Assembly (NCBI GenBank): GCA_964592525.1
Contig: CAZQFB010000001.1
Location: 279,299 to 343,298 of the forward strand
Length of the DNA stretch: 64,000 bases
Direction of reading: 5' to 3'
From: an uncultured Candidatus Saccharibacteria bacterium
Lineage (GTDB): Bacteria > Patescibacteriota > WWE3 > CAZQFB01
A model generated the notes under the pieces. The model had not been told where the DNA came from, did no database searches, and was given only the letters and a program-made list of their open reading frames with translations. Shown here in pieces: positions 30,534 to 63,991 of this stretch; position 1 is the stretch's first letter, and every line of letters begins with the position of its first letter. The translations under genes were made by a program, and so were the position numbers.

Positions 30534-33131
30534 ATGAACCCAGAAAACTTTACCGAAAAAACAACTCAAGCTATCAATAACGCTTCTGAAAGCGCTTTAG
30601 CAAACAAAAACTCTATCATCGAAGTAGAGCATCTGATGCTGTCTCTTCTAGAGCAAGCGGATACAGCTGTTGTTCCAATGCTGCAAGCACTTTCTGTGGA
30701 TATTGATGGTTTTAAGGCAGACTTGCTAAGTGCTGTAGAAAGGTTCGCTAAGGTTGAAGATCTTAAACTTGAGCAGTTGCGGGTTTCTGCGGAATTAAGA
30801 AATGTTTTAACTAACGCCCAGAAGCAAGCAGCTAAGTTGGGTGATGACTATATCAGCACGGAGCATCTCCTGTTGGCGCTGGTAGCAGAAGGTGGTTCGG
30901 TGGCTACTCTTTTAAGTAAATATGGTGTAACTAGAGATAATTTAAGTGATAACATAGCTTCCGTGAGAGGTAACATGCACGTGCAAGATCGCAATCCCGA
31001 AAGTAAATATAACGTTTTAGAAAAATATGGCCAAAACCTCACTGTCTTGGCTCGTGAGGGCAAATTAGACCCGGTTATTGGTCGGGATGAGGAAGTACGT
31101 CGGGTAATGCAGGTTTTATCCCGCCGGACCAAGAATAACCCGGTCCTGATCGGTGAGCCGGGAGTAGGTAAAACCGCTATCGTGGAAGGTTTAGCACAAA
31201 GGATTATAGCTGGGGATGTTCCGGGTAGCCTAAAAAATAAAGATATTGTTTCTTTGCAGATTGGTTCACTTCTGGCGGGAGCCAAATTTAGAGGTGAATT
31301 TGAAGACCGTTTAAAGTCGGTTTTGAAAGAGGTAGAAGAAAGTGACGGTAAAATACTTCTCTTTGTTGATGAAATGCATACCATTGTGGGTGCGGGCGCT
31401 GCCGAAGGTGCGGTGGATGCAGCTAACATGTTAAAACCATTACTCGCTCGCGGTAAATTGCACATGATCGGAGCCACCACTCTAGATGAGTATCGGAAAC
31501 ATGTAGAGAAAGATGCCGCTCTGGAGAGACGCTTTCAGCCTGTTTTTGTAGGCGAACCCAGTATTGAGGACTCTATAGCAATATTACGTGGTTTAAAAGA
31601 GCGCTACGAGCTTCATCATGGCGTAAAAATAACCGATCCCGCTCTTGTTGCCGCAGTAGAATTATCTTCTCGTTATATTGCTGATCGGTTCCTGCCCGAT
31701 AAAGCGATTGATCTGATTGATGAAGCGACCTCATCTTTGAAGATGGAGATTGATAGTATGCCGGTAGAGCTTGATCGGATCAAACGTAAAATGCGTCGTT
31801 TAGAGGTGGACAAGCAGGCTTTGAAAAAGGAGAAAGACAAAGCTTCTAAGGAACGCTTACAGGAAATTGAGCAAGAGTTGGCTGATTTAGGAGAAAAATC
31901 TTCGGCTATGGAAAAGCAGTGGGAGAATGAAAAAGGTTTAATTCAGAAGAGTCAGGATCTTTCCGAGAAAGTAGACGAGCTAAAATTTGCTGAGGAACAA
32001 GCGGAGAGGGAAGGGGATTTTGAGAAAGCGGCTCAAATAAAACATGGCGATATTCCAAAACTGGAGCAAGAGATTGCTAAGGTTAAAGAAGCCTTAAATA
32101 AACTTGAGGTTAGTACTCGTTTATTAAGGGAGGAAGTGACCGAAGAAGATGTGGCTATGGTAGTAGCTCGTTGGACGGGAATTCCGGTGACCCGCTTGTT
32201 AGCCACAGAACAAGACAAATTGGTACATCTAGAGGCTGAATTAGGTCAAAGGGTTGTCGGTCAGGAAGAGGCAGTAGCGGCAGTTTCCCGCGCGGTCAGA
32301 CGCTCACGTGCCGGCATCGCTGCTAGTAATAAACCCTTAGGCAGCTTTATTTTCCTGGGACCTACGGGAGTTGGTAAAACAGAGCTTGCCAGAGCCTTAG
32401 CGGAGTTTTTGTTTAACGATGAAGAGGCTATGGTTCGGATTGATATGAGCGAATACGCGGAGAAGCATACGGTCGCTCGTTTGATTGGCGCTCCTCCGGG
32501 TTATATTGGTTATGATGAGGGCGGGCAGTTGACGGAAGCGGTCAGGAGAAGACCTTACACCGTGGTCTTATTTGATGAAATTGAAAAAGCAAACCCCGAT
32601 ATTTTTAATGTCTTACTGCAAGTTTTAGAGGATGGTCGTTTAACTGATGGTAAGGGGCGTACAGTGGATTTCCGCAACACCATTATTATTATGACCTCTA
32701 ATCTAGCTAGTGAATTAATTCAACAGTGGTCTTCTTCTGCGCAAGAAGCAACCGAGAAAAAACGTCATGACGAGGTAATGTCTGAAGTGAAAGCGCACTT
32801 TCGTCCAGAGTTTCTTAATCGGGTGGATCGGGTAATTATTTTTAAGCGTTTAAGTCGGGAGCAAATGCGCCAAATCGTGGATATCCAATTAGTAAATTTG
32901 ACAAAATTGCTTGCCACAAGACATTTAACACTAGAAGTTAGTGACCAAGCCAAAGAGCAATTAGCGCAGGATGGTTATGATGCGGTGTTTGGGGCACGTC
33001 CTTTAAGACGATTAATTGAAGAAAAAATTATAGATGAGCTCTCGCTTAAAGTAATTGAGGGCGAAATCAAGGAGCAAGATACGGTCAAAGTGACTATTGA
33101 TCAACACGGTAATTATCTTGTCAAGCGTTAA
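30534..33131 (+). CDS. clpB: ATP-dependent chaperone/disaggregase ClpB
   Basis: two AAA+ modules ([13 protein letters not shown]; [14 protein letters not shown]), long coiled-coil middle domain, N-domain; 865 aa. Confidence 0.9.
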
Positions 33132-37536: not shown

Positions 37537-38976
37537 GTGTACGCTTTGGAAATGGAACTGTGTGATCAATCTTTAGCATTTTTATTGGCTCATCGGCAAG
37601 AAATATCTTCAACCGAGCTCTGCTCTTCCTGCTGGAAGAGGATAAAAAAATATAATCCTGCCCTTAATGCTTTTTTAACTACGGTCGAACCCTCAAAGCA
37701 GCAAACATTAATACCTCTGGCACACAAAGATGTTTTTGTCACTAAAGGATTAAGAACCACCGCTGGTTCTCTGCTGCTTAAGGACTGGAAACCTCCTTAT
37801 GATGCTACAGTAGTACGTCGTTTCCAAGAGGCTGGTTATGTTTGTTTAGGTAAAACCAATTGTGATGAATTTGCCCAGGGCTCTACTGGTCACCTTTCGG
37901 CTTATGGTTTATGTACTAATCCTTGGCACACTGATTATTTAAGTGGTGGTTCAAGTAGTGGGTCGGCAGTGGCGGTATCTGCGCGAATGGTGCCTTTAGC
38001 GACCGGTTCGGATACCGGTGGTTCAATTAGGGTACCAGCTTCGCTGTGTAATGTTGTTGGTATCAAACCCACCTATGGTAGAGTATCTCGTTATGGGGTT
38101 ATTGCCATGGCTTCTTCTTTGGATTGCCCTGGTGTTTTTGCCCGTTCAGTTAAAGATTGCAGTATCGCTTTAGAGGTTATTGCTGGTAATGACCCTCAAG
38201 ATGCAACCTCCTCAACCCAACCTGTGCCAAATTACACGATTGATTTAAATGTTGACCTTCACACTAAAACCATTGGTTTTCCGCAAGAGTACTTCACTTC
38301 AGAAACAGACACACAGGTTAAAAGCCTGGTGCTTCAGGCTTTAAGTTGGTATGAAAAACAAGGAGTGTCAATAGTAGAAATTTCTTTGCCACATAGCTCG
38401 TATGCCGTAGCTGCTTATTATGTCCTTGTACCGGCTGAAGTTAGTTCTAATATGTCTCGCTTTGATGGGATTCAATATGGCGGTTTGGCACATGATGCTA
38501 GCCAAGACTTAAACGCTTATTATTCTATGGTGCGCAGCCAGTTGCTGGGTGAGGAAGTTAAAAGGCGTATCCTGACGGGCACTTTTTGTCTTTCGGAAGG
38601 TTATCAGGATCAATATTATAAGCAAGCACAAAAGGTCAGGGGTTTAATAGCCCAAGAGTTTCAAGAAGCATTTACCCAAGTGGATGCTATTTTAGCGCCA
38701 GTTCTGCCCATGGTGGGTTTAAGCAAAAAGTCTTTAGCGGCTGATCCCTTGACTTTCTATCTAGCCGATACTCTAACCATTCCCAGTAGTTTGGCTGGTT
38801 TACCAGCACTAGCGTTGCCTTGTGGGTTTTCTAATGATAACCTCCCTATTGGCATGCAACTAATCGGTGCGCCTTTTTCGGAACAGTTGCTGTTTCAAAT
38901 GGGTTATGCTTACCAGGAGGATACGGATTGGCACCAGCGCAAGCCACCACTAATAGATCATGACGGAAATAACTAA
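37537..38976 (+). CDS. gatA: Asp/Glu-tRNA amidotransferase subunit A (amidase signature)
   Basis: GGSSSGSAVAVSA amidase signature, Ser-cisSer-Lys context; start is GTG 37537 or ATG 37552. Confidence 0.9.
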   Translation: MYALEMELCDQSLAFLLAHRQEISSTELCSSCWKRIKKYNPALNAFLTTVEPSKQQTLIPLAHKDVFVTKGLRTTAGSLLLKDWKPPYDATVVRRFQEAGYVCLGKTNCDEFAQGSTGHLSAYGLCTNPWHTDYLSGGSSSGSAVAVSARMVPLATGSDTGGSIRVPASLCNVVGIKPTYGRVSRYGVIAMASSLDCPGVFARSVKDCSIALEVIAGNDPQDATSSTQPVPNYTIDLNVDLHTKTIGFPQEYFTSETDTQVKSLVLQALSWYEKQGVSIVEISLPHSSYAVAAYYVLVPAEVSSNMSRFDGIQYGGLAHDASQDLNAYYSMVRSQLLGEEVKRRILTGTFCLSEGYQDQYYKQAQKVRGLIAQEFQEAFTQVDAILAPVLPMVGLSKKSLAADPLTFYLADTLTIPSSLAGLPALALPCGFSNDNLPIGMQLIGAPFSEQLLFQMGYAYQEDTDWHQRKPPLIDHDGNN

Positions 38977-40258
38977 AATCATAGCTTTGCCTCAATATTT
39001 GCATCAGTCCGTGACTTTAGCTGGGTGGGTAGTTAACCTTCGTTCTTCGGGTGGGGTGGTTTTTATTTTGATGCGAGATGGTAGTGGCGTGGTGCAAGCA
39101 GTTGTATCTAAGGATACTGTTTCCGAGCAAATCTTTGCGCTCTCCCAGCAATTAACCCAAGAATCTTCTCTTAAGATAAAAGGAATACCGCAGAAAGATG
39201 AACGTTCACCTGGAGGTATTGAGTTAGCCGTGACGAGTATTGAGCCAGTTCAGTTAGTAGCAGAAGAATATCCGATTGGTAATAAAGAGCATGGCACTGA
39301 TTTTTTGCTCCAACATCGACATCTATGGTTAAGAGCTAGAAAACAATGGGCAATTCAGCGAGTTCGTCATCAGTTAATTATGGCGATTTATCAATTTTTA
39401 AATGATCGTGGTTTTACTAAAATAGATGCTCCGATTTTTACCCCCACTGCTTGTGAGGGTACGACGACGCTGTTTGCTGTTGATTATGTTAACGATAAAA
39501 AGGTGTTTTTATCGCAATCAGGACAACTGTATCTAGAAGCGGCCATAGCCAGTTTTGGACAGGTGTTTGATTTTGGACCAACCTTCAGAGCCGAGAAATC
39601 AAAGACCCGTAGACACTTAACCGAGTTTTGGATGCTTGATGTGGAGATGGCTTTTGCCAATCAAGCGGATAATATGGCTTTTCAGGAAGAATTAGTTAAG
39701 TTTTTAGTTAATGCTGTGCTTAACAAGTCGGCTAATGAGTTAGTGCTCCTGGGTCGGGATTTAACTCATTTAAAACAGACTGTTGTTGAGCCGTTTGCCA
39801 AAATCACTTATGCCGAAGCAGTGTCTCGTTTGCATGATTTGGGTTCTAAGATTGAATTTGGCAGTGATTTGGGTAACGAGGACGAAACACTTTTAGCCCA
39901 TCAGTTTTCCACGCCCGTTTTTGTTGAACTTTTCCCTTCAGACCTTAAAGCTTTTTATATGAAGCGTAATCAGGATCAATTAGTGTTAGGTAGTGATTTA
40001 TTAGCCCCTGAAGGTTATGGTGAAATTATTGGTGGTAGCGAAAGAGAAGATAATTATCAGACCTTGCTGGCTCAAATTAGAACTGCTAACTTGAGTGAAG
40101 CTGATTTGTCTTGGTATCTTGATCTTAGGAAATATGGAACAGTGCCTCATAGTGGTTTTGGTTTGGGTCTAGAACGACTTGTCGCTTGGGTTTGTGGCTT
40201 AGAACATGTCCGGGAAGCTATTCCTTTTCCCAGAACAATCTACCGTACCTTCCCATGA
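38960..40258 (+). CDS. asnS: asparaginyl-tRNA synthetase (class IIb)
   Basis: FRAEKSKTRRHLTEFWMLDVEMAF motif 2, WYLDLRKYGTVPHSGFGLGLERL and C-terminal IPFPRT match AsnRS rather than AspRS. Confidence 0.8.
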   Translation: MTEITKIIALPQYLHQSVTLAGWVVNLRSSGGVVFILMRDGSGVVQAVVSKDTVSEQIFALSQQLTQESSLKIKGIPQKDERSPGGIELAVTSIEPVQLVAEEYPIGNKEHGTDFLLQHRHLWLRARKQWAIQRVRHQLIMAIYQFLNDRGFTKIDAPIFTPTACEGTTTLFAVDYVNDKKVFLSQSGQLYLEAAIASFGQVFDFGPTFRAEKSKTRRHLTEFWMLDVEMAFANQADNMAFQEELVKFLVNAVLNKSANELVLLGRDLTHLKQTVVEPFAKITYAEAVSRLHDLGSKIEFGSDLGNEDETLLAHQFSTPVFVELFPSDLKAFYMKRNQDQLVLGSDLLAPEGYGEIIGGSEREDNYQTLLAQIRTANLSEADLSWYLDLRKYGTVPHSGFGLGLERLVAWVCGLEHVREAIPFPRTIYRTFP

Positions 40259-40989
40259 GCACTAACTTAACCTATGATGATATTTGGCAGGTAACGCCGG
40301 TGATAGACCCGCAAATCTGGCCCCAATATTGGTGGCTTAAAGCCTTTAATCTCGGAGCCACTGCTTTAGAAATTGGACCGGGAACTAGACCTAAACTGCC
40401 TTTAGCTGATACAACCTTTGTGGATACTAGCAGAATTGCCGTTGAAAAACTCAAAGAGCAACAAGCTAATGCTATGCTTAGCGATGTAGCGGCGATGCCC
40501 TTTCCTGCTTCTAGTTTTGGTTTAGTCTGTGCCTTTAATTTGCTTGGTACTGTTGCCGATGACACACTGGCTTTAAGGGAAATTATGCGGGTGGTTAAAC
40601 AAGATGGTTTTGTAGTCTTATCGCTACCGCTCCATATGCATAAATGGACGTATAGTGACCAGTTATTGGGGACAGTCCGGCGGTACAACCCAGCGGTTAT
40701 TTATGAACTTCTGCAGCAAATCGGGTTTCAAATATTTACCTACAAGAGTGTGTTCGGATTATTGACTAGGTTGGAGAACTATCTGGCTACTGCTTTGACC
40801 TATTTATACCAAGATGACCCACTTAAGGTGTACACACTCATTCAGGATATAATTGTACCGGGTTACCGCTTCAAATTAGCCCTCTCACCGCGTGATCGGG
40901 TTACTTGGCAAAGAGGGGACTTTATTAAAGATACTCGTAACGCGGCAGAAGTAATTGTTGTATGTAAACCGAGGTTTTCTCATGTCTAA
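40255..40989 (+). CDS. class I SAM-dependent methyltransferase (Methyltransf_11-like)
   Basis: LEIGPGT motif I, MPFPASSFGLVCAF post-I region; ATG 40255 overlaps asnS stop (ATGA). Confidence 0.6.
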   Translation: MSTNLTYDDIWQVTPVIDPQIWPQYWWLKAFNLGATALEIGPGTRPKLPLADTTFVDTSRIAVEKLKEQQANAMLSDVAAMPFPASSFGLVCAFNLLGTVADDTLALREIMRVVKQDGFVVLSLPLHMHKWTYSDQLLGTVRRYNPAVIYELLQQIGFQIFTYKSVFGLLTRLENYLATALTYLYQDDPLKVYTLIQDIIVPGYRFKLALSPRDRVTWQRGDFIKDTRNAAEVIVVCKPRFSHV

Positions 40990-42319
40990 CTATCGCGCTG
41001 TGGTGGGAATCGAAATTCATGTACAACCAAAGACGAAGACTAAAATGTTTTGTGCTTGCCCAGTACCTGATGTTAAAGCACCTCCAAATACTAGCGTGTG
41101 TCCTGTTTGTTTAGGGTTACCTGGTTCTCTGCCGGTGCCTAACGAAGCAGTGTTGGATCAGGCTTTAATTTTAGGTTTGGCTCTTAATTGTGACATTAGA
41201 CCCCAGATAATATTTGCTCGGAAGCATTATTTTTATCCAGATTTACCTAAGGGTTATCAAATAAGTCAGTTTGAAAATCCAGTGGCTGTCAAAGGGTATT
41301 ACGCTGTGGCTGGGTTTCGCATCGGGGTGACAAGAATCCATCTTGAGGAAGACACGGCTAAATTAGTGCATGAGGATAAGGTTAGTTTAATTGATTATAA
41401 CCGTAGCGGTATGCCACTTATTGAGCTTGTGACTGAACCTGATTTTGAGAGTGGGGAACAAGCGCGCCTATGGTTGAAAAGTATTCATCGGCTGATCACT
41501 AATCTTGGTATTTCTGAAGCTAACATGGAGAGTGGTACCATGAGGATTGAACCGAACATCTCGGTGGGTACCAAGGAGCAGTTAAGCAAGGGAAGGCTAC
41601 CCGACTATAAGGTTGAAGTAAAAAACATTAATTCTTTTAGGTATGTAAAGCAGGCTATTGATTACGAGATTGCTCGACAAATGAGGGCGCTTCAGGATCG
41701 GGTGACGATACCCAGTGAAACACGTGGTTGGAATGAAAAATTAAACCAAACTCAAGTGCAAAGAACTAAGGAGACGTCACCTGATTATAGGTACTTTCCA
41801 GAACCAGATATTCCGCCGATAATCATTACTCCCCATCGACTGGAAAAGGCTAAGCAGGCGTTGGTGAGGAACCCTGAAGTTAGAGAACAGGAGTTAATTG
41901 ATCAATGGGAAATTAGTCGCGAGATGGCGAAGATTATTATTGATCATAAGGCGTTAGTTAATGGTCTGACTATAATTGAGTATATTGAGCAAGTAGCCGA
42001 GACCGGTGTGGCTCCGGCACAAGTGGCTAAAATGGTAATTAATAAGCCTACTATTAGGGCGGAAATTGATCCTCTAAACTTCAAACAATATCTAAAGACA
42101 CAAAAGCAAGAACGGCTTCAAGATAGGGTACTCCTAGCAGCAGTAGTGGAGAAAATATTAAAGCAGCATACCTTTGCGGTGAAAACATACCAGGAGGGTA
42201 AGCTAGCGGTGGTGGAATTTATTTTAGGCAAGGTGATGAGAGAAACGAATGGTAAGGCAGACCCAGTTCTGGCGAAAATAATCATTATGGAGCAATTAGC
42301 ACAACAGAATAATGACTAA
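40982..42319 (+). CDS. gatB: Asp/Glu-tRNA amidotransferase subunit B
   Basis: N-terminus YRAVVGIEIHVQ...KMFCAC, GatB/YqeY tail; ATG 40982. Confidence 0.9.
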   Translation: MSNYRAVVGIEIHVQPKTKTKMFCACPVPDVKAPPNTSVCPVCLGLPGSLPVPNEAVLDQALILGLALNCDIRPQIIFARKHYFYPDLPKGYQISQFENPVAVKGYYAVAGFRIGVTRIHLEEDTAKLVHEDKVSLIDYNRSGMPLIELVTEPDFESGEQARLWLKSIHRLITNLGISEANMESGTMRIEPNISVGTKEQLSKGRLPDYKVEVKNINSFRYVKQAIDYEIARQMRALQDRVTIPSETRGWNEKLNQTQVQRTKETSPDYRYFPEPDIPPIIITPHRLEKAKQALVRNPEVREQELIDQWEISREMAKIIIDHKALVNGLTIIEYIEQVAETGVAPAQVAKMVINKPTIRAEIDPLNFKQYLKTQKQERLQDRVLLAAVVEKILKQHTFAVKTYQEGKLAVVEFILGKVMRETNGKADPVLAKIIIMEQLAQQNND

Positions 42320-44123
42320 ACTAGCATTTTCACCAGACAAACCACCCTATGAGCTGGTACAGGACAATAAAAGGGTTAAAGAATTAGCAAGGCAATTTGC
42401 GAAGGCAAAAACCTTGGGGGTGGATGTTGAGGCTACTGGACTTGATCCTTATACCAGCGAATTATTATTACTTCAGATTGGTGTTGATGATCAAGCTTAT
42501 TTATTTGACCCACTGCAGGTTGACTTGAGTTTGTTAAAACCCCCGCTTAGTGCCAGCCAGCCTTTGAAGATAGTACAAAACGCCAGCTTTGATTATAAAT
42601 TTATAAAGCATCATCTAGGTATTACCTTAGGTAATTTATTTGACACGATGTTAGCCGAGAGAATGTTAACTGCTGGATTAAGTCGGAATGTGTCTTTGGC
42701 AGCCATGAGTGAGAAATATTTAGGAGTAAAAATGGACAAGGAAGTGCGCAAAAGTTTTGTGCGTGGTAATCACCAGTTTAATATTAAGCAGTTGGAGTAT
42801 GCTGCCTTAGATGTGTTGGTGCTGCCACATATTTTGTCGGCACAACTTCCTCTCTTGGAAAAAGAAGATTTGATGAAAGTCGCTCACTTAGAATTTCAAA
42901 CGGTACCAGTAGTGGCGGAAATGGAACTTAAGGGTATTCGTTTGGATATCCAAAAATGGCAGGAAATATTTGCGTATGAGCAAAAGGAGCGGGATAGGGC
43001 AGAAGATAAAATTCAGGAGTTATTAGCCCCATTATATAAACGTCACCAAGCAAACTTGTTTGGCGGTACTTCTAAAGTGGTTAATCTTAACTCGCCAAAA
43101 CAAGTACTTGAAGCCTTTCAACTGTTGGGAGTTGATGTTCCTTCAACCGGAGAAGCCGTACTTAAAAAAACCAACCATGCGTTAGCCAAACTGCTATTAG
43201 ACTACCGAACCCACGAGAAATTGATTAGTGCTTTTGGGGACTCTCTGTTGGAAAAAGTAAATCCAGTTACGAAGAGAATCCATCCCAGTTTTAGTCAGAT
43301 TGGGGCAGATACTGGTCGTTTTTCTTGCTCCGATCCTAATCTGCAACAAATACCTGCTACTGCCAGATTTAGGGAATGTTTTATACCAGCTGATGGTTAT
43401 ACTTTTGTGGTAGCTGATTACTCGCAACAAGAGTTAAGGGTTTTAGCTGGTTTAACTAACGACCCCCTGTTCTTAAAGGCTTATCGTGAGGATTTAGATC
43501 TTCATAGTTTGACAGCCTCACAAATGTTTGGGGTGCCTTTTAAGGAGTTTAAGCCAACTGAAAACCCAGAGCATAAAAAATTAAGGCAGTCGGCAAAAAC
43601 GATTAATTTTGGTATTGCTTATGGTATGGGTCCGGGAGCATTAGGGGCTTTATTGGGGGTTAGTGTGGAAGATGCGAGGGGGATGTTGTCAAAATATGTG
43701 CAGACATATAAGGGAGTGAAAAGATGGTTGGATAAGGTAGGAAAAGAAGCCCTTTATAAAGGTTACAGTGAAACTATTATTGGTCGCAAAAGGTGGTATC
43801 ATTTGCCGAGCAAAGATGATGTTGATTACATTCGCGTCGTTGGCAATATTGAACGTCAGGGTAAGAACACCCCTATTCAAGGCAGTAGTGCTGACATGAC
43901 CAAATTTGCCTTGATTTATATGTACAAAAAATTTCAAGACGAGCAGTTAGTAGCTGTGCCGATATTGGCTATTCATGATGAGGTGGTGGTGGAGGTTAGC
44001 CAAGCAGATGCACCCAGAGTCAGGGATATTGTGGAAGCGGAGATGATCAGAGCTGGGGAGGAAATGCTACCCCAAGTGCCTGTTAAAGCAGAAGCTAAGA
44101 TCACCAATGTTTGGGAGCATTAA
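42312..44123 (+). CDS. polA: DNA polymerase I, Klenow-like (3'-5' exonuclease + polymerase; no 5' nuclease domain)
   Basis: Exo I VDVEATGL, Exo II QNASFDYKF, pol motif A DYSQQELRVLA, B RQSAKTINFGIAYG, C HDEVVVE; only 603 aa. Confidence 0.85.
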   Translation: MTKLAFSPDKPPYELVQDNKRVKELARQFAKAKTLGVDVEATGLDPYTSELLLLQIGVDDQAYLFDPLQVDLSLLKPPLSASQPLKIVQNASFDYKFIKHHLGITLGNLFDTMLAERMLTAGLSRNVSLAAMSEKYLGVKMDKEVRKSFVRGNHQFNIKQLEYAALDVLVLPHILSAQLPLLEKEDLMKVAHLEFQTVPVVAEMELKGIRLDIQKWQEIFAYEQKERDRAEDKIQELLAPLYKRHQANLFGGTSKVVNLNSPKQVLEAFQLLGVDVPSTGEAVLKKTNHALAKLLLDYRTHEKLISAFGDSLLEKVNPVTKRIHPSFSQIGADTGRFSCSDPNLQQIPATARFRECFIPADGYTFVVADYSQQELRVLAGLTNDPLFLKAYREDLDLHSLTASQMFGVPFKEFKPTENPEHKKLRQSAKTINFGIAYGMGPGALGALLGVSVEDARGMLSKYVQTYKGVKRWLDKVGKEALYKGYSETIIGRKRWYHLPSKDDVDYIRVVGNIERQGKNTPIQGSSADMTKFALIYMYKKFQDEQLVAVPILAIHDEVVVEVSQADAPRVRDIVEAEMIRAGEEMLPQVPVKAEAKITNVWEH

Positions 44124-44227: not shown

Positions 44228-45214
44228 ATGTTTCGGAAGGAAGTCACTATGGTTATTTGCCAAAGATGTAACAAAAGACCAGCCAGAATACAAAGTCAGC
44301 AAATTGGGGCTGATGGACGACCAATTTTTGTTAATTTGTGTGAGGAATGTTTTGCCCAGATCCAGAATCAGCACAACAAGTCTTCTTTACTGGATAAATT
44401 TGGTCGGGATTTAACCAAGATGGCTGCGGACGGGTTATTGGACCCAGTCATCGGGCGAGCGGAGGAGATAGAGAGAGTTATTCATATCTTGTCTCGGCGC
44501 ACAAAAAACAACCCAGTTTTGGTAGGTGATCCGGGAGTTGGTAAAACGGCTATTGTTGAAGGTTTAGCGCAACGAATAGTAGAGGGGCAGATCATAGAAA
44601 CTCTACAAGGAAAAAGGATAATTGCGATTGATATACCTCTCATGTTGGCGGGTGCTGCGCACCGAGGCGAATTTGAACAGCGTTTGAAAAAAACCATTGA
44701 TGAAGTGATCAGATCCAAGGGACAGATAATATTGTTTATTGATGAAGTCCATTTGATTGTTGGTGCTGGTGCGGCTCAAGGGGCGATTGATGCTGCAAAT
44801 ATGTTGAAGCCTTCATTGGCAAGAGGAGAGGTGCAAACGATAGGTGCTACCACTTTAGATGAGTATCGCCAAGTAATTGAGAGAGATGGGGCTTTGGAGA
44901 GACGTTTTCAACCTGTATTTGTAGCTGAACCCACGGTGGCAGAAACTATAGACATTCTGCATGGGCTAAAAAGAAAATATGAAGAACATCACCAAGTGAT
45001 TATTGAACGGGGAGCGATTGAAGCCGCTTCAATTTTGTCCGAGCGGTATATTGTGGACCGTTTTTTACCGGACAAGGCAGTTGACCTTTTAGATGAGGCT
45101 TCTTCGGCTGTGAGATTACGAACCATTAGGGAGCCAGAAACATTGCGACAAATCAACACGGAAATTAAATATCTTGAGAGCGAGCTTAATCGGTTTAACA
45201 AAGAAAATTTATGA
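44228..45214 (+). CDS. ClpC/ClpE-type AAA+ ATPase, N-terminal part (zinc finger + nucleotide-binding domain 1 + start of middle domain)
   Basis: CQRCNKRP...CEECF zinc ribbon, Walker [14 protein letters not shown], ends inside coiled middle domain; stop overlaps next ATG. Confidence 0.75.
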
Positions 45215-46362
45215 CTACCACCAAACAAAAATTAAGTGTACTCCAAATTCAGAAAAGATTGTTGGATCTTTATAGAGTGAAAGGGGAATTATCTGAATTA
45301 TGGCAGCGCACCAAGTTGGAAGAGGTTCCTACGGTTACTAGACAAGACATTGCTACGGTAGTTTCTAAAATGACGGGTATTCCACTCAATGACTTAACCG
45401 AAGAAGAAAAAGAAAAGCTGCTGCATATTGAGGAAAGAATACACCAGCGTATTGTGGGGCAAGATCATGCTGTGGCGGTAGTTAGTGCCGCGATTCGTCG
45501 GTCTAGAGCGGGCTTAAAGGAAAGGAACAGACCGATTGGCTCTTTCTTGTTTTTGGGACCAACGGGGGTGGGTAAAAGTGAATTATCTAAAACCTTAGCT
45601 GAAGTTCTGTATGGTAGTGAAGATATGCTCGTTCGTCTTGATATGAGTGAGTTCATGGAGAAACATACAGTTTCGCGATTAATTGGCGCTCCTCCAGGAT
45701 ATGTTGGTTTTGATGAGGGGGGTCAATTAACCGAGATAATCAGACGACGACCTTTCAGTGTTATTTTATTTGATGAGATAGAGAAAGCTCATCCGGAAGT
45801 TTTTAATATCTTATTACAGATTATGGAAGATGGACGCTTGACTGATGGTCAAGGTAGGATGGTTGATTTCAAAAACGCTATTTTAGTGATGACCTCTAAT
45901 TTGGGTTCGCAGATAATATATCAGGATACGTTAGGATTTAATCCCCAGGGTAGTGTAACCGATATTTGGTCGGATTTTGAGGAACTAAAAGGGAGAGTGA
46001 TGAGTTCCTTGAAAAATGAATTTAGACCGGAGTTTGTTAACCGTATCGATGAAGTCGTCGTGTTCAAGTCACTTACTAGGGAAGATATCTCTAAAATCAC
46101 AGAGCTGGAATTGGGAAGGTTAGTTAGTTATCTTGCTGATGAGCAAATAAAATTAACGTACACGCCTAAGGTAGTTGCTCACTTAGTGGAAAAAGGTTAT
46201 GATCCGCAGTACGGAGCTAGACCGATAAAGCGCTTGCTTCAACAAGTGGTTGAAAATCCTCTAAGTGATGAGATAATTCGAGGATCTTTCAAACCAAAAG
46301 ATAAAGTTTTACTAGGAACAAGACTTGGCAACTTAACTATTAAAAAATCAAAAAGATCATGA
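45211..46362 (+). CDS. ClpC/ClpE-type AAA+ ATPase, C-terminal part (rest of middle domain + nucleotide-binding domain 2 + C-domain)
   Basis: [20 protein letters not shown] Walker A, sensor/Arg-finger region, ClpB_D2-small tail. Confidence 0.75.
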
Positions 46363-46919
46363 CGGATAATAACCAACAGGATAAAGACACACCTTCAGAA
46401 GTAACTACCCCCGAAGCAGCTTTGGTTTCTGACACCGATGACAAAACCGATATTGAGGCAGGGAAACCAACTGACCAACTTGAACCACAGGATACTGCTG
46501 GGGGTGATCTAACCGAAGAAGAAATGTTAGCGGATAACGACGAGCACTTATCTGATGAGGTTGACCAGGATACCTTAAAACAGAAGGTGGAGCAAATATC
46601 AGAGCCAGCGAAAGTGGCAAATCATTTTCATGTTGGAGATACGGTAGTGGTGCATTATCGTATTAAAGAAGGCGATAAAGAAAGAATACAACCTTACGAG
46701 GGTTTGGTTTTAGCGATGAAAGGTGCTGGAGTAGGTCGGACTTTTACGGTGCGGAGAATTACCAGGGGGGGAATTGGCGTGGAGAGGATATTTCCGCTTC
46801 AATCACCTAATATATTGAAAGTTGAAGTATTGAGACGTGGTAAGGTACGCCGGAGTAAACTTTATTATTTAAGAAAAAAGGTTGGTAAAAGTGCGCTTAA
46901 GGTTAAAGAATTGAAGTAG
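46359..46919 (+). CDS. rplS: 50S ribosomal protein L19 with about 80-aa acidic N-terminal extension
   Basis: C-terminal 100 aa ([17 protein letters not shown]...[14 protein letters not shown]) match bL19. Confidence 0.85.
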
Positions 46920-48265: not shown

Positions 48266-50803
48266 CTAATCGTGATCTTTAACCCAGCGGATGGCTTCAT
48301 TGGGGTCTAAAATATAAGTCCACCAATCCCTTGTAAAATCGGTTGCTCTGCCGTTGGTGAGGTAAATATTAGCAGTACCACTTTGGCTAGGTAGAGATCC
48401 CAACCAGAAGAGCTGCCAGCCTTCATCGCTGCAACCCCAAGCAGTGCAATTAATTGGTGTCGCTTTGCCAGTGTAATTGGGAAACTCTTGCCATTTCTGG
48501 CAAGCGCTTGGTCTGGTGGTATCGTTGTTGTAATTATAATGTGTTACAGCATTATGCGGAAAATGAACATTACCGCAGTATTCAGAGGTGGGTGGGTTGT
48601 TAGCATTCTTGGGTTCATAGTAGCGGTCAATGACGGCAAAATCTAACCAATGGCGTTGTATTTCCGAACCTTTCCAGTAAGCAGTAAAATAGTTTATGAC
48701 TGATTCTACTCGGTGTCCGTACATATGTAGACTAGCATCGGGTCGCCAGGTAGTACCCATCACGATTATTTGTTTTTGACATTCTGGCACGATAAAGGTA
48801 GGACCATTTACCCAAAATCCGGTAGTAGGACCAACCATAAAACTTTCATAGGCTAAAACGTAATCTGGACTTAACATCCAGATTTCATCAGCGTTTACTT
48901 TGGCAGCTTCTTCACAGATACTGCTCTCTTGGAAAAATTTAACATAATCAACTTTCCATTTGTTCTCTTCACACCAATCGGGCACTGGATTGCCGGTGAG
49001 GGGATTCAAACAAGGTAAAAATCCATTACTACTATAGCGAGGTCCGCTTTTCATGGGTGGGAAGGTGGTGATATTTTGATAACCAGCTATTTGGTAATTA
49101 ACTACACCTTCAGTAGCTTTATTTAAGGCATCGGCTTTAGTTTTAGCCGAATTTACGGCAGCTTGATGCAAACTGACTCCGTTAGCTAGAGTTGATAGGT
49201 ACTCGCTGTAAATAGTACCGCTATCCAATGGAGGATCTACGGTGACCAAAAGCAGGTTGACGGTGTGCTGATTTTCTGGCGTACCAACATCGGGAAGAGC
49301 TGTATTGGGAGGAGGGTTGTCTGGTTTTTCCACAATAGGGGGTGGGTTATAGGTGGGGATTTGGTCCAAACCGAGGAGATCCAGTCTAGCAGCACCGCCG
49401 GTTTGGCCGTAATCTACCTTGAGGTTATAGGTACCACTGCTTGGTAGCTTAAGGGTTACTTTATGGCTACCATAGCCTAGTTTAGAGGTGACGGCGAGGT
49501 CATTTAACCAGATTTGTGCCCAGTCATCCACGAACAGGGTAAGGTTGTAGGTGCCTTGGGTGAGAGCTAGGGAGTTAGTAAAGAGAGCAGAGAACCTTTG
49601 CCTGTCAACGTCTGTGGGGTAGGGGGTTTCATTCCCAAATCTAAGTTTGAGGTCTCGGTTAGTATCACTGAACCCGTCGTTGTAATCAGCTATGGTTGAG
49701 CTAAGATTGCCGGTAGCGTTGTAAAACTTAGCTTCCCACTTGGCAGTGGGAGCAACCGCTGGTTTTTCCACAATAGGTGGTGGGTTATAGGTGGGGATTT
49801 GGTCCAAACCGAGCAGGTCCAGTCTAGCAGCACCGCCGGTTTGGCCGTAATCTACCTTGAGGTTATAGGTACCACTGCTTGGTAGCTTAAGGGTTACTTT
49901 ATGGCTACCATAGCCTAGTTTAGAGGTGACGGCGAGGTCATTTAACCAGATTTGTGCCCAGTCATCCACGAACAGGGTAAGGTTGTAGGTGCCTTGGGTG
50001 AGAGCTAGGGAGTTAGTAAAGAGAGCAGAGAACCTTTGCCTGTCAACGTCTGTGGGGTAGGGGGTTTCATTCCCAAATCTAAGTTTGAGGTCTCGGTTAG
50101 TATCACTGAACCCGTCGTTGTAATCAGCTATGGTTGAGCTAAGATTGCCGGTAGCGTTGTAAAACTTAGCTTCCCACTTGGCAGTGGGAGCAACCGCTGG
50201 TTTTTCCACAATAGGTGGTGGACTGGTTTCCTGCGCTGGTGGGGGAGAAAGTAATATGCTATCTAGTCCCAACAATTTCAGCTGTGGTTGTCCGCCTATT
50301 CGGAGGTAGTTTATAGCTAGGGAATATTCCCCAGTTTGGGGTATGTTTAAAGTTACATCTTGCCAAGATTTTTTCAGGTACTGATCATTAATTAACTTGT
50401 CATTTAGGTACAAGCCGGCTGAATCATCGGCGTACATTTTGAGCAAATAAGTGCCTTGGGGTAGTGTCAGTTTAGTGTTAAAAGTTACCTTGAAGTTGAT
50501 GTATTTTAATCCTATAGGATAAGACACTCGTTTGCCCCAAGTAATGTCTAAATCATTGATCGTTTCGTCATTGCTATCGTAAATATTTTTGGTGGAAACG
50601 CCGGCGTATTTTCCATTAGCGAGATAATAAGTAGCTTGCCAGGGGCTAGGCAACGATTTAGCACTGGAGAAGTAATTTTGTCTGACTTTGTTGCTACCGA
50701 CAGTTACAACTAAAGCAAGCAGTAGCAATAAATATTTTGTGTTTTGGGTAAATTTTATGTATTTAAAATATTTTTTATATTTACGGACAGCTTTATACAC
50801 CAT
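48266..50803 (-). CDS. large secreted protein with three PA14-like domains (two identical copies) and a C-terminal Cys-containing domain of unknown function
   Basis: signal-anchor N-terminus; repeated GTYNLTLFVDDWAQIWLNDLAV... modules; 146-aa block present twice verbatim. Confidence 0.7.
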   Translation of the reverse strand: MVYKAVRKYKKYFKYIKFTQNTKYLLLLLALVVTVGSNKVRQNYFSSAKSLPSPWQATYYLANGKYAGVSTKNIYDSNDETINDLDITWGKRVSYPIGLKYINFKVTFNTKLTLPQGTYLLKMYADDSAGLYLNDKLINDQYLKKSWQDVTLNIPQTGEYSLAINYLRIGGQPQLKLLGLDSILLSPPPAQETSPPPIVEKPAVAPTAKWEAKFYNATGNLSSTIADYNDGFSDTNRDLKLRFGNETPYPTDVDRQRFSALFTNSLALTQGTYNLTLFVDDWAQIWLNDLAVTSKLGYGSHKVTLKLPSSGTYNLKVDYGQTGGAARLDLLGLDQIPTYNPPPIVEKPAVAPTAKWEAKFYNATGNLSSTIADYNDGFSDTNRDLKLRFGNETPYPTDVDRQRFSALFTNSLALTQGTYNLTLFVDDWAQIWLNDLAVTSKLGYGSHKVTLKLPSSGTYNLKVDYGQTGGAARLDLLGLDQIPTYNPPPIVEKPDNPPPNTALPDVGTPENQHTVNLLLVTVDPPLDSGTIYSEYLSTLANGVSLHQAAVNSAKTKADALNKATEGVVNYQIAGYQNITTFPPMKSGPRYSSNGFLPCLNPLTGNPVPDWCEENKWKVDYVKFFQESSICEEAAKVNADEIWMLSPDYVLAYESFMVGPTTGFWVNGPTFIVPECQKQIIVMGTTWRPDASLHMYGHRVESVINYFTAYWKGSEIQRHWLDFAVIDRYYEPKNANNPPTSEYCGNVHFPHNAVTHYNYNNDTTRPSACQKWQEFPNYTGKATPINCTAWGCSDEGWQLFWLGSLPSQSGTANIYLTNGRATDFTRDWWTYILDPNEAIRWVKDHD
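49320..50195. repeat. near-perfect tandem duplication of a 438-bp unit (2 copies, a third partial start at 50196) inside the PA14-like gene
   Basis: GCTGGTTTTTCCACAATAGGTGGTGGGTTATAGGTGGGGATTTGGTCC... recurs at about 49320 and 49758, partial at 50196. Confidence 0.85.
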
Positions 50804-59911: not shown

Positions 59912-62900
59912 ATGAGAATTGAAAAAGTAACTATAATTTTACGTTTAGTTGTTATTCCAATAATAGGATGTCTGTCTCTACTACTTGATCCAACGCCGTC
60001 ATTAGCGCAGAGTGACTATTTTGATGCCTGGAATCAGCTGGAGCTGCTAAATCAGGAACAATATCTTGAGGACCAGCTGATTATTACTCTTAGTTCAGCT
60101 TCTTCCCCTGAAGCCTTGGGGCTCCTGCACCAAGAAATAAATTCTGAAGTATTGGGTGTGAATATCCCGCTAGGGTTGCAAATAGTAAAAATAAATAATC
60201 TCACACTTAAGGAAGCTATTGAACATTATTCACAGTCCGAACATGTAGTCAACATTGAGCTTGACCAAGTGACACACCTTTCTGGTACCGTAGATGATAC
60301 TTATTTTATTTCCGATGATCAATGGGCTCTTGAGGATATTCATGCTCCAGAGGCATGGGATATAAGTACCGGTTTGGGTGTTACGATTGCGATCTTGGAT
60401 TCTGGAGCAGATTCTGACCACGAGGATTTGGTAGGCAATTTAGTTAGCGGTTACAACTTTGTGGATAATAATACTAACACAGATGATGTTGTTTGTGGTC
60501 ATGGAACAATGGTTTCAGGAATAGCGGCTGCGGTTGGTAATAATGCAACGGGATTAGCCGGGGTGGCCTATCATGCCTCCATCATGCCAGTGAAGATTCT
60601 GGATAATTCCTGCAATGGTTCTGTAAGCAATATAGTATCAGGCATTACTTACGCTGTTGATAACGGCGCCGATTTAATTAATTTAAGTGTTGGAGTGTAC
60701 GGTGCCACCAGTTCACTTGAGTCCGCCGTGAATTACGCGGAAAATAATAATGTCCTTATTGTTACTTCAGCTAACAATAGCAGTGAACCCTATGAATCTA
60801 ACAATTGGTATCCAGCTTTATACCCTTCTACTTTGGTTGTGACATCACATGACCAATCAGATGAGGTGTACAGTACCTCAAATGTTGGTGGTAATGTTGT
60901 TTCGGCTCCAGGCGTTTCTATAAGAACGACCTACAACAATGGATCATATGGTTATTTTTCTCTCACTTCTGCTTCAGCGCCAATAGTGGTAGGCGTTGCC
61001 GCTTTAATTAAATCTGCCAATTCAAATCTAACCGGTAATCAACTATGCTGGCTCATTAAAAACGAAGCTACGGATATAGGGGACACTGGTCGCGATTTCA
61101 TTTTTGGATATGGGAAGGTTGATGCTGAAGCAGCAGTGGCTCAAGCCAACAACGATTCCTATAGCTACCCATCTTCGGGTTGTGAGGCTGAAGTTACCCC
61201 AACTTATGGTTGGGTTATTGAATATGGGGGGGAGAACATTGACAACGATCTTGAAGGAAACTTATATCTATCTTCTGATACTTCTTCTACCTTGGGATAT
61301 ACAAAATACTCTCCCAACGGGGACTTAATTTTTGAAAAAGATTTGGGTACGGGTGGTTCTAACCACGATATCTTTGTTGATGATACCGGTGTTACCTTAC
61401 TAACGGGTGAATATTCAGCTCAAGTTGATTTTAATGCTTCCGAAGAACAAGATACCAAAGAACCCAATAATGTTGATTTATTTATAACAAAGTACAAAGC
61501 TGATGGTTCATATGGTTGGACAAGAACAGCAGCTGGAGCAAGCTCGGCTCAAGCAAAGGGTTATGGAGTTACTGCCGATCAAAATGGAAATATCACCGCA
61601 GTAGGGGAGTTTAGGCAAACAGTAGATTTCGACGATTCTGCTGGAGTGGATGAACATTCTCACGGAAGTTCATGGAAATCAATATTTATTACTCATTATG
61701 ACTCAGACAGTAATTACCTTTGGACGAAGTCTTTAGTACCACAATCTTATGTATATAGTGCTGGTTTGGATGTGATTACAGATAGCAGTAACAACATAAT
61801 CGTGGTTGGTACTTTTGGAAGTACGGTTGATTTTGATCCTGGTGAGAGCGAGGTTATAAAAGATGGGGGATCTAAACTTGATGGATTTATTGTTTCTTTT
61901 CAAGAAGATGGTGTGTTTAGCTGGGCAAAATCATTCGGCAACAGCTCCGAATCGGTTTGGGTTAATGCGGTAACCGTAGACGAATCAAATAATGTTTATA
62001 CTACCGGATATTTTGGTGGGACTGTTGACTTTAATGACAGTGGTGGTGTGGATGAACACATTGCGGTTGGTGACAAAGATGTGTTTATTACAAAATACTC
62101 CTCATCAGGAGAATATGGTTGGACCAGGACTTTTGGAGGTAGTGGTGAGGATCTTGGTAATGACCTTGCGGTGAGTACTGATGGGAGAGTGTTGGTGGTG
62201 GGAACTTACGAAAACACTGTTGATTTTGATACATCAGCGGGAGAACACGAGTTTTCTTCTTATGGGGGATATTCAGATATTTTTATCAGCACCCACACCA
62301 CTGAGGGGGTGTATATTTCCACAGATACTTATGGTGGGGGTAGAGATGATACTGTGACGGGTATAGCTTTGGATACGAGCAACAATTATGTGATTGTTGG
62401 TGAATATCGGGGTGCGGTTGACTTTTCTAACGATGATACAAACTATTTTCTGTCAAGCGCTTGGGGCAGGTATACATCAAAGTATGCCATTGATCAAACC
62501 TCTCCCGGCTTATCAGTTACCGAAACTTCTCCTGGTACAGATACCACCCCGGTTTTAAGTGGTACTAGTAGTGAATCTTCGGGAATAACGTTTTTGGTGG
62601 AATACCAGATAGATAGCACTGAAGGTGCGTGGACAACTTGCACGGCTGTTGACGGGAGTTTTGAAGAATCTATTGAAGAATTCAGTTGTCAAGTAGAGAA
62701 CCCCTTGTCAGGTGGGGTGCACACAGCATATTTCAGAGCCACGGATGGTTCGGGCAACACTACGCCCTTAGGTAGTTACACGGAATCACTTTTTACCATT
62801 GATTTTGAAGGGCCAATAAAGTCTATCTTCACGTCCCATGATCAAGATGGTTACATTAACACTAGGGATGTCCTATTAAACATTTCCGCTACTGATGAAA

Positions 62901-63991
62901 TATCTAATGTTGCATACATGATGCTCAGCGAAAGCGAAGCTTTTGCTGATGCATCTTGGCAAACATACTCGTCAAGCACACAATTTTCTGTATCAGAGGG
63001 AGATGGTGTAAAAAGGATTTATATTAAATTTAAGGATGATCTAGATAATGAATCAAGCACCTCATATCAAGATGTCATTATAGATACTAAAGCTCCACAT
63101 AAGTTTAGTTTTCAAACTCAAGATAGAATGTTTAAAAGTGACTCTGGAAAACATGTTGTACGTGCAGTTCCAAATGGTGGTTACACTGTTGATAACGAAG
63201 TAGCTCTATCCTGGAAAAATGAAAGTGATGCAACTTCTGGTGTGGACAAATATGAAGTTTACTATCGTGAAATAGGAGACAGAAAATGGGAATTGGTTGA
63301 AGAGGTGGAAGGTACCGAAGATGTTGTGGTGTTAGAGGTCTCGGTAGGAGATTATGAGTGGTATGTAATTGCTCATGATATAGCTGGCAATACTAGAGAA
63401 ACTGATATTTACACATTTTACGTAATTGATTCTATGGGTGGTGCTGGAGCTAATATACACTTAGTTAATGGGGTATCACCGAGCAGTGGTTTTGTTTATC
63501 TTGGGGTTAGTGAGATCCTTGATGTTGAAGGAGTGGCTGATAAAAATAGTGAGGTTATTGTGGAGATATATAGTCCAGATGGAGCAGTTAAGTATCAAGA
63601 GATCATTTGTGCTACTGATATAGGTGGTGAGTTTGAGTGTAAAGATCAAGCACAAATACTTTCTAATTACTTATTAAGAATTTATTCCAAGAACAAAGCT
63701 AATGAGGAGTCAGCTAAAACTGAAATTAACTTAGTTATTGGTAATCAACCCCAGCTTGCCAGGTCAGATAACACAAAAACCAACATAATTGAAGGAGAGG
63801 ATGAACAATCTAAGGAACAGCCACTGTTGGAAGAAGATTCTAAGGAAGGCTCAAGCGGTTATGAGGTTGATCAGAATACGGCTGCAGACACTCGGCTGGG
63901 AGATGATAAAGCTGAGCTTGAAACATCAAACAAGCCTAAGGAACCCAACCTATTTAGGCGATTTATTAATTGGCTTAATCCTTTCAATTAG
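59912..63991 (+). CDS. secreted subtilisin-like serine protease (peptidase S8) with long C-terminal region of beta-propeller (SBBP-like ...TVDFD...) repeats and Ig-like domains
   Basis: Asp AILDSGAD, His GHGTMVSG, Asn VTSANNS, Ser SLTSASAPIVVG in order; signal peptide; repeated xTVDFDxSxG...GxDxxITKY modules; 1359 aa. Confidence 0.8.
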   Translation: MRIEKVTIILRLVVIPIIGCLSLLLDPTPSLAQSDYFDAWNQLELLNQEQYLEDQLIITLSSASSPEALGLLHQEINSEVLGVNIPLGLQIVKINNLTLKEAIEHYSQSEHVVNIELDQVTHLSGTVDDTYFISDDQWALEDIHAPEAWDISTGLGVTIAILDSGADSDHEDLVGNLVSGYNFVDNNTNTDDVVCGHGTMVSGIAAAVGNNATGLAGVAYHASIMPVKILDNSCNGSVSNIVSGITYAVDNGADLINLSVGVYGATSSLESAVNYAENNNVLIVTSANNSSEPYESNNWYPALYPSTLVVTSHDQSDEVYSTSNVGGNVVSAPGVSIRTTYNNGSYGYFSLTSASAPIVVGVAALIKSANSNLTGNQLCWLIKNEATDIGDTGRDFIFGYGKVDAEAAVAQANNDSYSYPSSGCEAEVTPTYGWVIEYGGENIDNDLEGNLYLSSDTSSTLGYTKYSPNGDLIFEKDLGTGGSNHDIFVDDTGVTLLTGEYSAQVDFNASEEQDTKEPNNVDLFITKYKADGSYGWTRTAAGASSAQAKGYGVTADQNGNITAVGEFRQTVDFDDSAGVDEHSHGSSWKSIFITHYDSDSNYLWTKSLVPQSYVYSAGLDVITDSSNNIIVVGTFGSTVDFDPGESEVIKDGGSKLDGFIVSFQEDGVFSWAKSFGNSSESVWVNAVTVDESNNVYTTGYFGGTVDFNDSGGVDEHIAVGDKDVFITKYSSSGEYGWTRTFGGSGEDLGNDLAVSTDGRVLVVGTYENTVDFDTSAGEHEFSSYGGYSDIFISTHTTEGVYISTDTYGGGRDDTVTGIALDTSNNYVIVGEYRGAVDFSNDDTNYFLSSAWGRYTSKYAIDQTSPGLSVTETSPGTDTTPVLSGTSSESSGITFLVEYQIDSTEGAWTTCTAVDGSFEESIEEFSCQVENPLSGGVHTAYFRATDGSGNTTPLGSYTESLFTIDFEGPIKSIFTSHDQDGYINTRDVLLNISATDEISNVAYMMLSESEAFADASWQTYSSSTQFSVSEGDGVKRIYIKFKDDLDNESSTSYQDVIIDTKAPHKFSFQTQDRMFKSDSGKHVVRAVPNGGYTVDNEVALSWKNESDATSGVDKYEVYYREIGDRKWELVEEVEGTEDVVVLEVSVGDYEWYVIAHDIAGNTRETDIYTFYVIDSMGGAGANIHLVNGVSPSSGFVYLGVSEILDVEGVADKNSEVIVEIYSPDGAVKYQEIICATDIGGEFECKDQAQILSNYLLRIYSKNKANEESAKTEINLVIGNQPQLARSDNTKTNIIEGEDEQSKEQPLLEEDSKEGSSGYEVDQNTAADTRLGDDKAELETSNKPKEPNLFRRFINWLNPFN

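Follow-up and report, generated by a model that had tools for sequence, protein, structure and literature searches.

Evidence for a conserved fission of a ClpC/ClpE-type Hsp100 gene at the tip of the M-domain coiled coil in WWE3-like Patescibacteria

A 64,000-nucleotide (nt) stretch of contig CAZQFB010000001.1 (positions 279,299 to 343,298, forward strand), from an uncultured bacterium placed in the WWE3 group of the Patescibacteriota and referred to here as the window, carries a predicted ClpC/ClpE-type AAA+ ATPase that is encoded by two overlapping open reading frames (ORFs). Comparison with related loci indicates that this split is very probably an evolutionarily fixed gene fission in a clade of WWE3-like Patescibacteria, with the cut at the apex of the coiled coil in the middle domain (M-domain). 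The split loci are the window itself and contigs L001 and L164-L171, which makes ten loci from nine samples, and the contigs were fetched after protein searches with each half of the protein. The class-I Hsp100 unfoldases (ClpA, ClpB, ClpC, ClpE and Hsp104) are treated as single chains in which the covalent linkage couples the two rings.

A sequence-only reading of this stretch had already described a Clp ATPase of this type as two overlapping ORFs cut in the M-domain, with an ATGA overlap and different frames, and Pfam searches, alignments and frame analysis bear that description out. It had left a genuine split gene, a homopolymer error, a pseudogene and programmed frameshifting side by side as explanations and had suggested a comparison with orthologues. 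That comparison shows the split conserved in ten loci and settles the choice for the first of the four, while the other three fit the evidence poorly for the reasons given below.

The split locus and its conservation

The features of the locus, in window positions, are as follows.

44249 to 45214, forward strand: ORF1, the N-terminal half of clpC, with a four-Cys N-terminus, AAA+ module 1, an AAA lid and the first M-domain helix
44258 to 44353, forward strand: CxxC-x22-CxxC, a putative zinc-binding N-terminal motif, DUF7685-like, kept in all fused and split relatives
44516 to 44905, forward strand: core of AAA+ module 1, with Walker A GDPGVGKT, the pore loop, Walker B ILFIDEVH and Arg fingers ALERRFQ
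45131 to 45211, forward strand: M-domain helix 1, the C-terminal tail of ORF1, from the alignment and from helix 297-318 of an AlphaFold2 (AF2) model
45205 to 45211, forward strand: A_AAT_TTA heptamer in the ORF1 frame, which resembles a -1 slippery site and is judged incidental, as it is not conserved
45211 to 45214, forward strand: ATGA stop/start overlap (ORF2 ATG at 45211-45213, ORF1 TGA at 45212-45214)
45211 to 46362, forward strand: ORF2, the C-terminal half of clpC (383 amino acids, aa), with the second M-domain helix, AAA+ module 2 and the D2-small domain
45211 to 45321, forward strand: M-domain helix 2, the N-terminal tail of ORF2, from the alignment and from helix 325-358 of the AF2 model
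45529 to 46056, forward strand: core of AAA+ module 2 (AAA_2), with Walker A GPTGVGKS, pore loop GAPPGYVGF, a Walker motif and sensor-1 MTSN
45931 to 45939, forward strand: LGF tripeptide of the putative ClpP-docking loop (role of the motif from PMC13125188)
46072 to 46308, forward strand: ClpB_D2-small C-terminal domain (Pfam), with sensor-2 GARPIKR

ORF2 lies in the -1 (+2) frame relative to ORF1. Its frame is open only from 45199, as a TAA closes it at 45196-45198, and therefore the two ORFs could be joined only through an indel or ribosomal slippage within 45199-45211. The earlier statement that one added base would fuse them is correct, and it is true of a single-base insertion anywhere in this interval. 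As an open frame, ORF1 extends from an alternative upstream ATG at 44228 to 45214 (328 aa). The true start is probably 44249 (MVICQRC...), because the deposited gene call (P0001) has 321 aa and all orthologues begin there. Overlaps of 4 nt are common in the window, and the end of ORF2 also overlaps rplS by ATGA (46359-46362).

When each half was used separately in protein searches, ORF1-like proteins of ~320 aa and ORF2-like proteins of ~380-400 aa were found at 56-76% identity. The nine further contigs, which were recovered from eight other samples, carry the break at the same structural point and share 56-75% aa identity with the window. The gene order (GatB-)PolA-ClpN-ClpC-L19-YraN is common to all ten split loci. 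The junctions are unrelated in sequence, and the break falls at the same alignment position in every one. The window, L001 and L167 have an ATGA overlap and L168 and L171 a GTGA overlap (4 nt and -1 frame in both cases), L164-L166 have TAATG with a 1-nt overlap in the -1 frame, and L169 and L170 have ATGACTAA, an 8-nt overlap with ORF2 in the +1 frame. The start codon of ORF2 is thus ATG or GTG, the ORF2 frame is closed 3-36 nt upstream of it across the split loci, and most of them have a GGAGG-, AGGAG- or GGGAGG-like motif 5-10 nt upstream. The lineage of L164-L166 is stably split and has further members in P0005 and P0127, the latter with a GTG start. Among the ten loci, an A-run or slippery heptamer is present in the window only. 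The A-run at which the split had been placed is therefore peculiar to the window genome, a local coincidence and not the cause of the split.

The nearest fused relatives (L004-L009 from GTDB genomes and L084-L095 from JGI metagenomes) encode proteins of ~700 aa at 59-70% identity and are labelled Patescibacteria group or candidate division WWE3. All 18 of the relatives that are complete or span the junction are fused (18/18), with the same four-Cys N-terminus and the same synteny, and more distant ClpC and ClpB genes are likewise fused. The fused state in the outgroups indicates that the event was a fission and not a fusion. In trees built by neighbor joining on Kimura distances, with bootstrap and with the junction columns excluded, the window, L001 and L167-L171 form a monophyletic group (clade A) with 92% bootstrap among 32 taxa, and the support for clade A was 98-100% in the ClpC, PolA and concatenated trees.

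One alternative is a homopolymer error of sequencing or assembly, in which a base missing from GAAAATTT has broken a fused gene. The window junction is A/T-rich, one extra base in 45199-45211 gives a single ORF, and homopolymer artefacts or recent indels are known in this family (L002, see below). However, the nine other contigs were produced by several assemblers and are split at the same point, and the orthologous junctions, such as GAAGGAGAAGTATGA and GGGAGGCCGAGCTGTGA, are without the A-run and are not homopolymeric. Additionally, the ORF1 frame is homologous up to its stop, with an ATG or GTG exactly there, and the apex has 7-17 residues more than that of fused genes. A sequencing error cannot recur at the same structural position in ten different sequences, and an error is considered next to inconceivable.

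A second alternative is that a recently frameshifted clpC is decaying as a pseudogene while ClpB covers the Hsp100 function. An intact ClpB of 865 aa with a Clp_N (PF02861) match is indeed found 12 kb away (30534-33131), as had been noted from the sequence. Gene loss is easy in reduced genomes, and in one relative (L003) the AAA2 Walker B Glu is replaced by a nonsense codon. However, all catalytic motifs are kept across lineages that are 56-75% identical: every split member retains intact forms of both Walker A and B boxes, sensor-1, sensor-2, the Arg fingers, the [LIV]GF loop and the AAA2 pore loop GAPPGYVG[FY]. The ten split loci are free of additional frameshifts and stop codons. The ratio of nonsynonymous to synonymous substitution rates (dN/dS) was calculated from two close pairs with unsaturated dS, and was 0.084 for ORF1 and 0.098 for ORF2 between L164 and L166, and 0.028 and 0.039 between L169 and L170. 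Deeper pairs are saturated in dS yet keep 56-75% aa identity. Both halves are under purifying selection (dN/dS 0.03-0.10). ClpB lacks the ClpP loop, as judged from the outgroup alignment and established knowledge, and is no functional substitute. Taken together, decay of this gene is exceedingly improbable.

Programmed -1 frameshifting at A_AAT_TTA would give a fused protein, either instead of the two chains or besides them. The window does have an in-frame X_XXY_YYZ heptamer where a -1 shift would join the frames, with the stop codon directly after it; such heptamers occur at 0.93% of codon positions in window genes, or a ~4% chance in the ~four usable positions. However, the heptamer is present in 0/9 of the other split loci. 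L169 and L170 would need a +1 shift and not a -1 shift, and the overlap in L164-L166 differs again. The predicted fold of 45212-45300 (89 nt) has -11 kcal/mol with z = +0.59 and its first 29 nt are unpaired, so no downstream RNA structure is indicated, and no Shine-Dalgarno-like stimulator was found upstream. Compared with dnaX and insertion sequence (IS) elements, the likeness is a slippery-type heptamer beside the frame change, seen in the window only, whereas conservation and a stimulatory element are missing and the frame relation among orthologues is inconsistent. Because opposite slip directions would be needed and there is no conserved site, programmed frameshifting is considered very unlikely. 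The use of UGA as a sense codon (code 25) was also rejected, as readthrough of the TGA meets a TAA seven codons on in the ORF1 frame, and L164-L166, L169 and L170 end ORF1 with TAA.

Identity of the protein and position of the cut

ORF1 and ORF2 together are, by sequence, a ClpC/ClpE-type class-I Hsp100, with a ClpC-like core, M-domain and ClpP loop and a possibly ClpE-like four-Cys N-terminus. Pfam matched AAA (residues 97-226) and AAA_lid_9 (237-326) on ORF1, and AAA_2 (107-282) and ClpB_D2-small (288-366) on ORF2. Each ORF covers just half of the NCBIfam ClpB, ClpA, ClpK and ClpG models, and jointly the two ORFs contain both AAA+ modules with their Walker A, Walker B, sensor and Arg-finger motifs. 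The single polypeptide of a class-I Hsp100 was not found, as the modules lie on two ORFs in different frames in ten loci. The Pfam search gave no Clp_N (PF02861) match on ORF1 and no UVR motif in the M-domain. DUF7685 matched the window N-terminus with 14.8 bits, below its cut-off of 27, and matched that of relative P0018 with 34.4 bits.

An identity as ClpB was rejected because of the short M-domain and the presence of the LGF loop. The [LIV]GF loop is kept across the family and is absent from the ClpB-type outgroups (L011, L012, L016, L047 and L059), which also have ~36 extra M-domain columns relative to the window family. The AAA1 pore loop has the form AG(A/T/S)xHRG(E/Q/M)FE in the window (44645-44683, ORF1 residues 140-152) and in all relatives. 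His stands in place of the canonical substrate-gripping Tyr (KYRGEFE) throughout this four-Cys ClpC-like family of WWE3-like Patescibacteria, while the ClpB-type outgroups retain Tyr or Phe. The possibility that the Tyr-to-His change is an outcome of the split was rejected, since the fused members share it.

The M-domain is a single-wing coiled coil, and the cut falls in the turn at its tip. The window M-domain is a helix-turn-helix of 62 aa that aligns to S. aureus ClpC residues ~412-466. ORF1 residue 319 aligns with residue 426 of that protein and ORF2 residue 26 with residue 455, and therefore the break maps to ~430-436. In ClpC the tip residue F436 mediates the resting-state contact and MecA binding, and the cluster of residues there forms a resting state that is repressed. 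AF2 was run on the concatenated chains with a 52-sequence alignment, which gave a mean predicted local distance difference test score (pLDDT) of 79.1. In this model the junction, 321|322 when counted from MVICQRC, falls in a 6-residue loop that separates helix 297-318 from helix 325-358. A single-sequence AF2 run of the concatenated chain was unusable (pLDDT 35.5). The best PDB matches of the former model in Foldseek were ClpC chains, with template modelling (TM) scores of 0.76-0.81 at ~50% identity.

From the EPxxL motif to the LWxxTK motif, the M-domain has 60-70 aa in the conserved split lineages compared with 44-54 aa in 16 fused relatives, and the 7-17 additional residues in the split proteins lie in the coiled coil. 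The longer M-domain fits a long history after fission in which both new termini grew.

A proposed two-chain enzyme and the points against it

In the proposed mechanism, chain 1 would carry the four-Cys N-domain, AAA1 and M-helix 1, and chain 2 would carry M-helix 2, AAA2 with the ClpP loop, and the D2-small domain. The stop/start overlap is retained in 10/10 split loci despite full turnover of the junction sequence, which points to translational coupling and a matched dosage of the two chains. Most likely, then, the coupled chains would reassemble through a coiled coil formed in trans and the AAA1-AAA2 interface: the two M-helices would pair as an antiparallel coiled coil, added to the normal contact between the modules. 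Six chain pairs would then build the usual two-tier hexamer ring, which would thread substrates, and the LGF loops on the ORF2 tier would probably dock with and feed ClpP. The split, its conservation, the selection on both halves, the intact motifs and the cut site are observed, whereas for the two chains coupling, assembly, activity and a ClpP partnership are what we infer.

It could also be that the fission is genuine and the halves work independently, with ORF2 as a single-ring, ClpX-like partner of ClpP and ORF1 as a separate single-ring ATPase or adaptor. The ClpP loop and the canonical pore-loop Tyr are on ORF2 alone and the AAA1 pore loop has His for this Tyr, and in one source (PMC4239642) an isolated ClpB fragment of nucleotide-binding domain 1 and M-domain (NBD1-M) is described as a fully active ATPase. 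However, the His is family-wide and occurs in fused members too, adjacency with a stop/start overlap is seen in 10/10 loci, both M-helices are kept and lengthened, and the two halves evolve at similar rates. Independent halves are therefore thought unlikely, and reassembly into one enzyme is the preferred reading.

Several observations weigh against a conserved fission into two associating chains. The A_AAT_TTA heptamer at the window junction could in principle permit -1 slippage. The window junction has no clear Shine-Dalgarno sequence, and a motif of this kind is present in just 14/44 window genes. No clpP gene was found within the 64-kb window. The AF2 chain was artificially joined, and the model locates the cut but is no test of association in trans. 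Support for joining L164/L166 to clade A was 88% with ClpC, 7% with PolA and 59% with the concatenated alignment. A single ancient fission and two separate ones are both possible, and the number is uncertain because the ClpC and PolA trees disagree on the placement of L164/L166. Finally, sporadic broken Clp genes occur in metagenome assemblies (L002, L172 and L003), and therefore a split in one genome alone would not be convincing.

These sporadic cases serve as controls. L002 (4900-4951 of a JGI contig) has 62% identity to the window and is split near the apex in an A-run. It was considered as a second conserved fission and rejected: it nests among fused sequences with 97-100% support, a fused gene spans the junction in its closest relatives (79-85% identity), its M-domain of 55 aa is of the fused type, and one A less in GAGGAAAACC mends the frame and gives a family-like fused sequence. 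The L002 break is a singleton indel that arose through an error or by very recent mutation. L172 (1030-1052 of a JGI contig) is split with a TTGA overlap, has a protein cluster of 8 members and has fused nearest relatives; this case is ambiguous and could be a young, real fission. L003 (1780-1800 of ENA contig k141_2477851) is a fused relative with 72% identity to ORF1. Its gene calls of 500 and 189 aa were rejected as another type of split, as the AAA2 codon for the Walker B Glu is replaced by an in-frame TAA (VLLD*IEKAH), which is either a nonsense mutation or a base error. The Lys/Glu-rich, A-rich stretch coding for the M-domain is evidently prone to such lesions, and the weight of evidence therefore lies with the conservation of a split and not with the split as such.

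A more speculative proposal, which we regard as rather doubtful, is that the M-domain tip is a recurrently used and functionally meaningful break point. The AAA1 and AAA2 tiers would be held together by nothing but a two-chain zipper, at the very place that governs the resting state and adaptor binding in single-chain ClpC, and association and dissociation of the chains could regulate ring stacking and protease activity. Fission may on this proposal have happened more than once (clade A versus the L164 lineage, and the sporadic L172).

Comparison with known systems and neighboring genes

ClpC is the best sequence match, with E = 2.5e-103 for ORF1 and 7.8e-115 for ORF2. The ClpC proteins of B. 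subtilis and S. aureus and ClpC1 of M. tuberculosis likewise have two AAA+ modules, a short single-wing M-domain in AAA1 and an [LIV]GF loop. Unlike ClpC, the window protein lacks Clp_N and UVR, has a four-Cys N-terminus and the AAA1 pore-loop His, and is made as two polypeptides cut at the M-domain tip, the F436 site. The B. subtilis ClpE N-terminus has the form CxxC...CxxC. ClpE of Gram-positive bacteria, including the E. faecalis structure 29hb, is likewise a class-I Hsp100 with an N-domain other than Clp_N and a coiled-coil M-domain of ClpC size. However, the AAA core matches ClpE more weakly than ClpC (E = 3e-89 and 6.7e-96), the N-terminus of the window family matches DUF7685 and not a named ClpE domain, and ClpE is a single chain. 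The VGF motif of ClpE is its ClpP motif, and its role has been described in ClpE and ClpC (PMC13125188).

The closest precedent for separate rings is an engineered one. According to published work, separate NBD1-M and NBD2 (residues 520-854) chains of T. thermophilus ClpB can be produced and purified, and Beinker et al. (2005, J Biol Chem 280:37965) say in their title that chaperone activity does not require the covalent linkage. Fragments of T. thermophilus ClpB are also the top PDB sequence matches (4hse for ORF1 and 4lj4 for ORF2). The engineered split ClpB likewise has its NBD1 and NBD2 parts on separate polypeptides, but it is artificial, is cut after the whole M-domain and not at the coiled-coil apex, and has a two-wing M-domain and no ClpP loop.

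Large multi-domain proteins divided at domain boundaries, with the split conserved in streamlined genomes, are also known from reduced genomes. Reverse gyrase and other genes are split in Nanoarchaeum equitans, and the rpoC2A/B split is found in apicoplasts (PMC12198436). Those cases concern other protein families, whereas here the halves are adjacent and overlapping and the cut lies inside a coiled-coil hairpin and not between globular domains. Searches of open-access full texts turned up no description of a bacterial ClpC, ClpE or ClpB that is split in nature.

A lineage with the two rings on separate chains and under strong purifying selection is a natural counterpart of the engineered split ClpB. 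It offers a system in which to ask how much of the communication between rings needs a peptide link, whether a coiled coil in trans can replace that link, and how activity is controlled when the canonical tip is missing. A conserved two-chain class-I Hsp100 is relevant to AAA+ specialists and also to annotation: records should name such pairs as the two subunits of a single enzyme and not as 'partial', 'pseudo' or generic 'AAA family ATPase', and isolated A-rich M-domain frameshifts such as L002 should not be mistaken for conserved split pairs.

Some observations were made on other genes of the window. A DNA polymerase I homologue of 603 aa (42312-44123) lacks a 5'-3' exonuclease domain and has just the polymerase and 3'-5' exonuclease domains, and such a homologue is directly upstream of the Clp pair in every relative examined. 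The L19 gene that overlaps the end of ORF2 by ATGA (46359-46919) encodes 186 aa with an acidic N-terminal extension of ~80 aa. The L19 product ranges from 110 to 223 aa among relatives, so the extension is variable and confined to certain lineages. On the reverse strand, 48266-50803 encodes an 845-aa protein with a PA14 domain as its sole match, and a 1359-aa ORF (59912-63991) ends 9 nt short of the window end. Between gatA (Amidase, 37537-38976) and gatB (40955-42319) there is a gene for a class-II tRNA synthetase of the Asp/Asn/Lys type (38960-40258), and this order suggests a transamidation operon with a non-discriminating synthetase.

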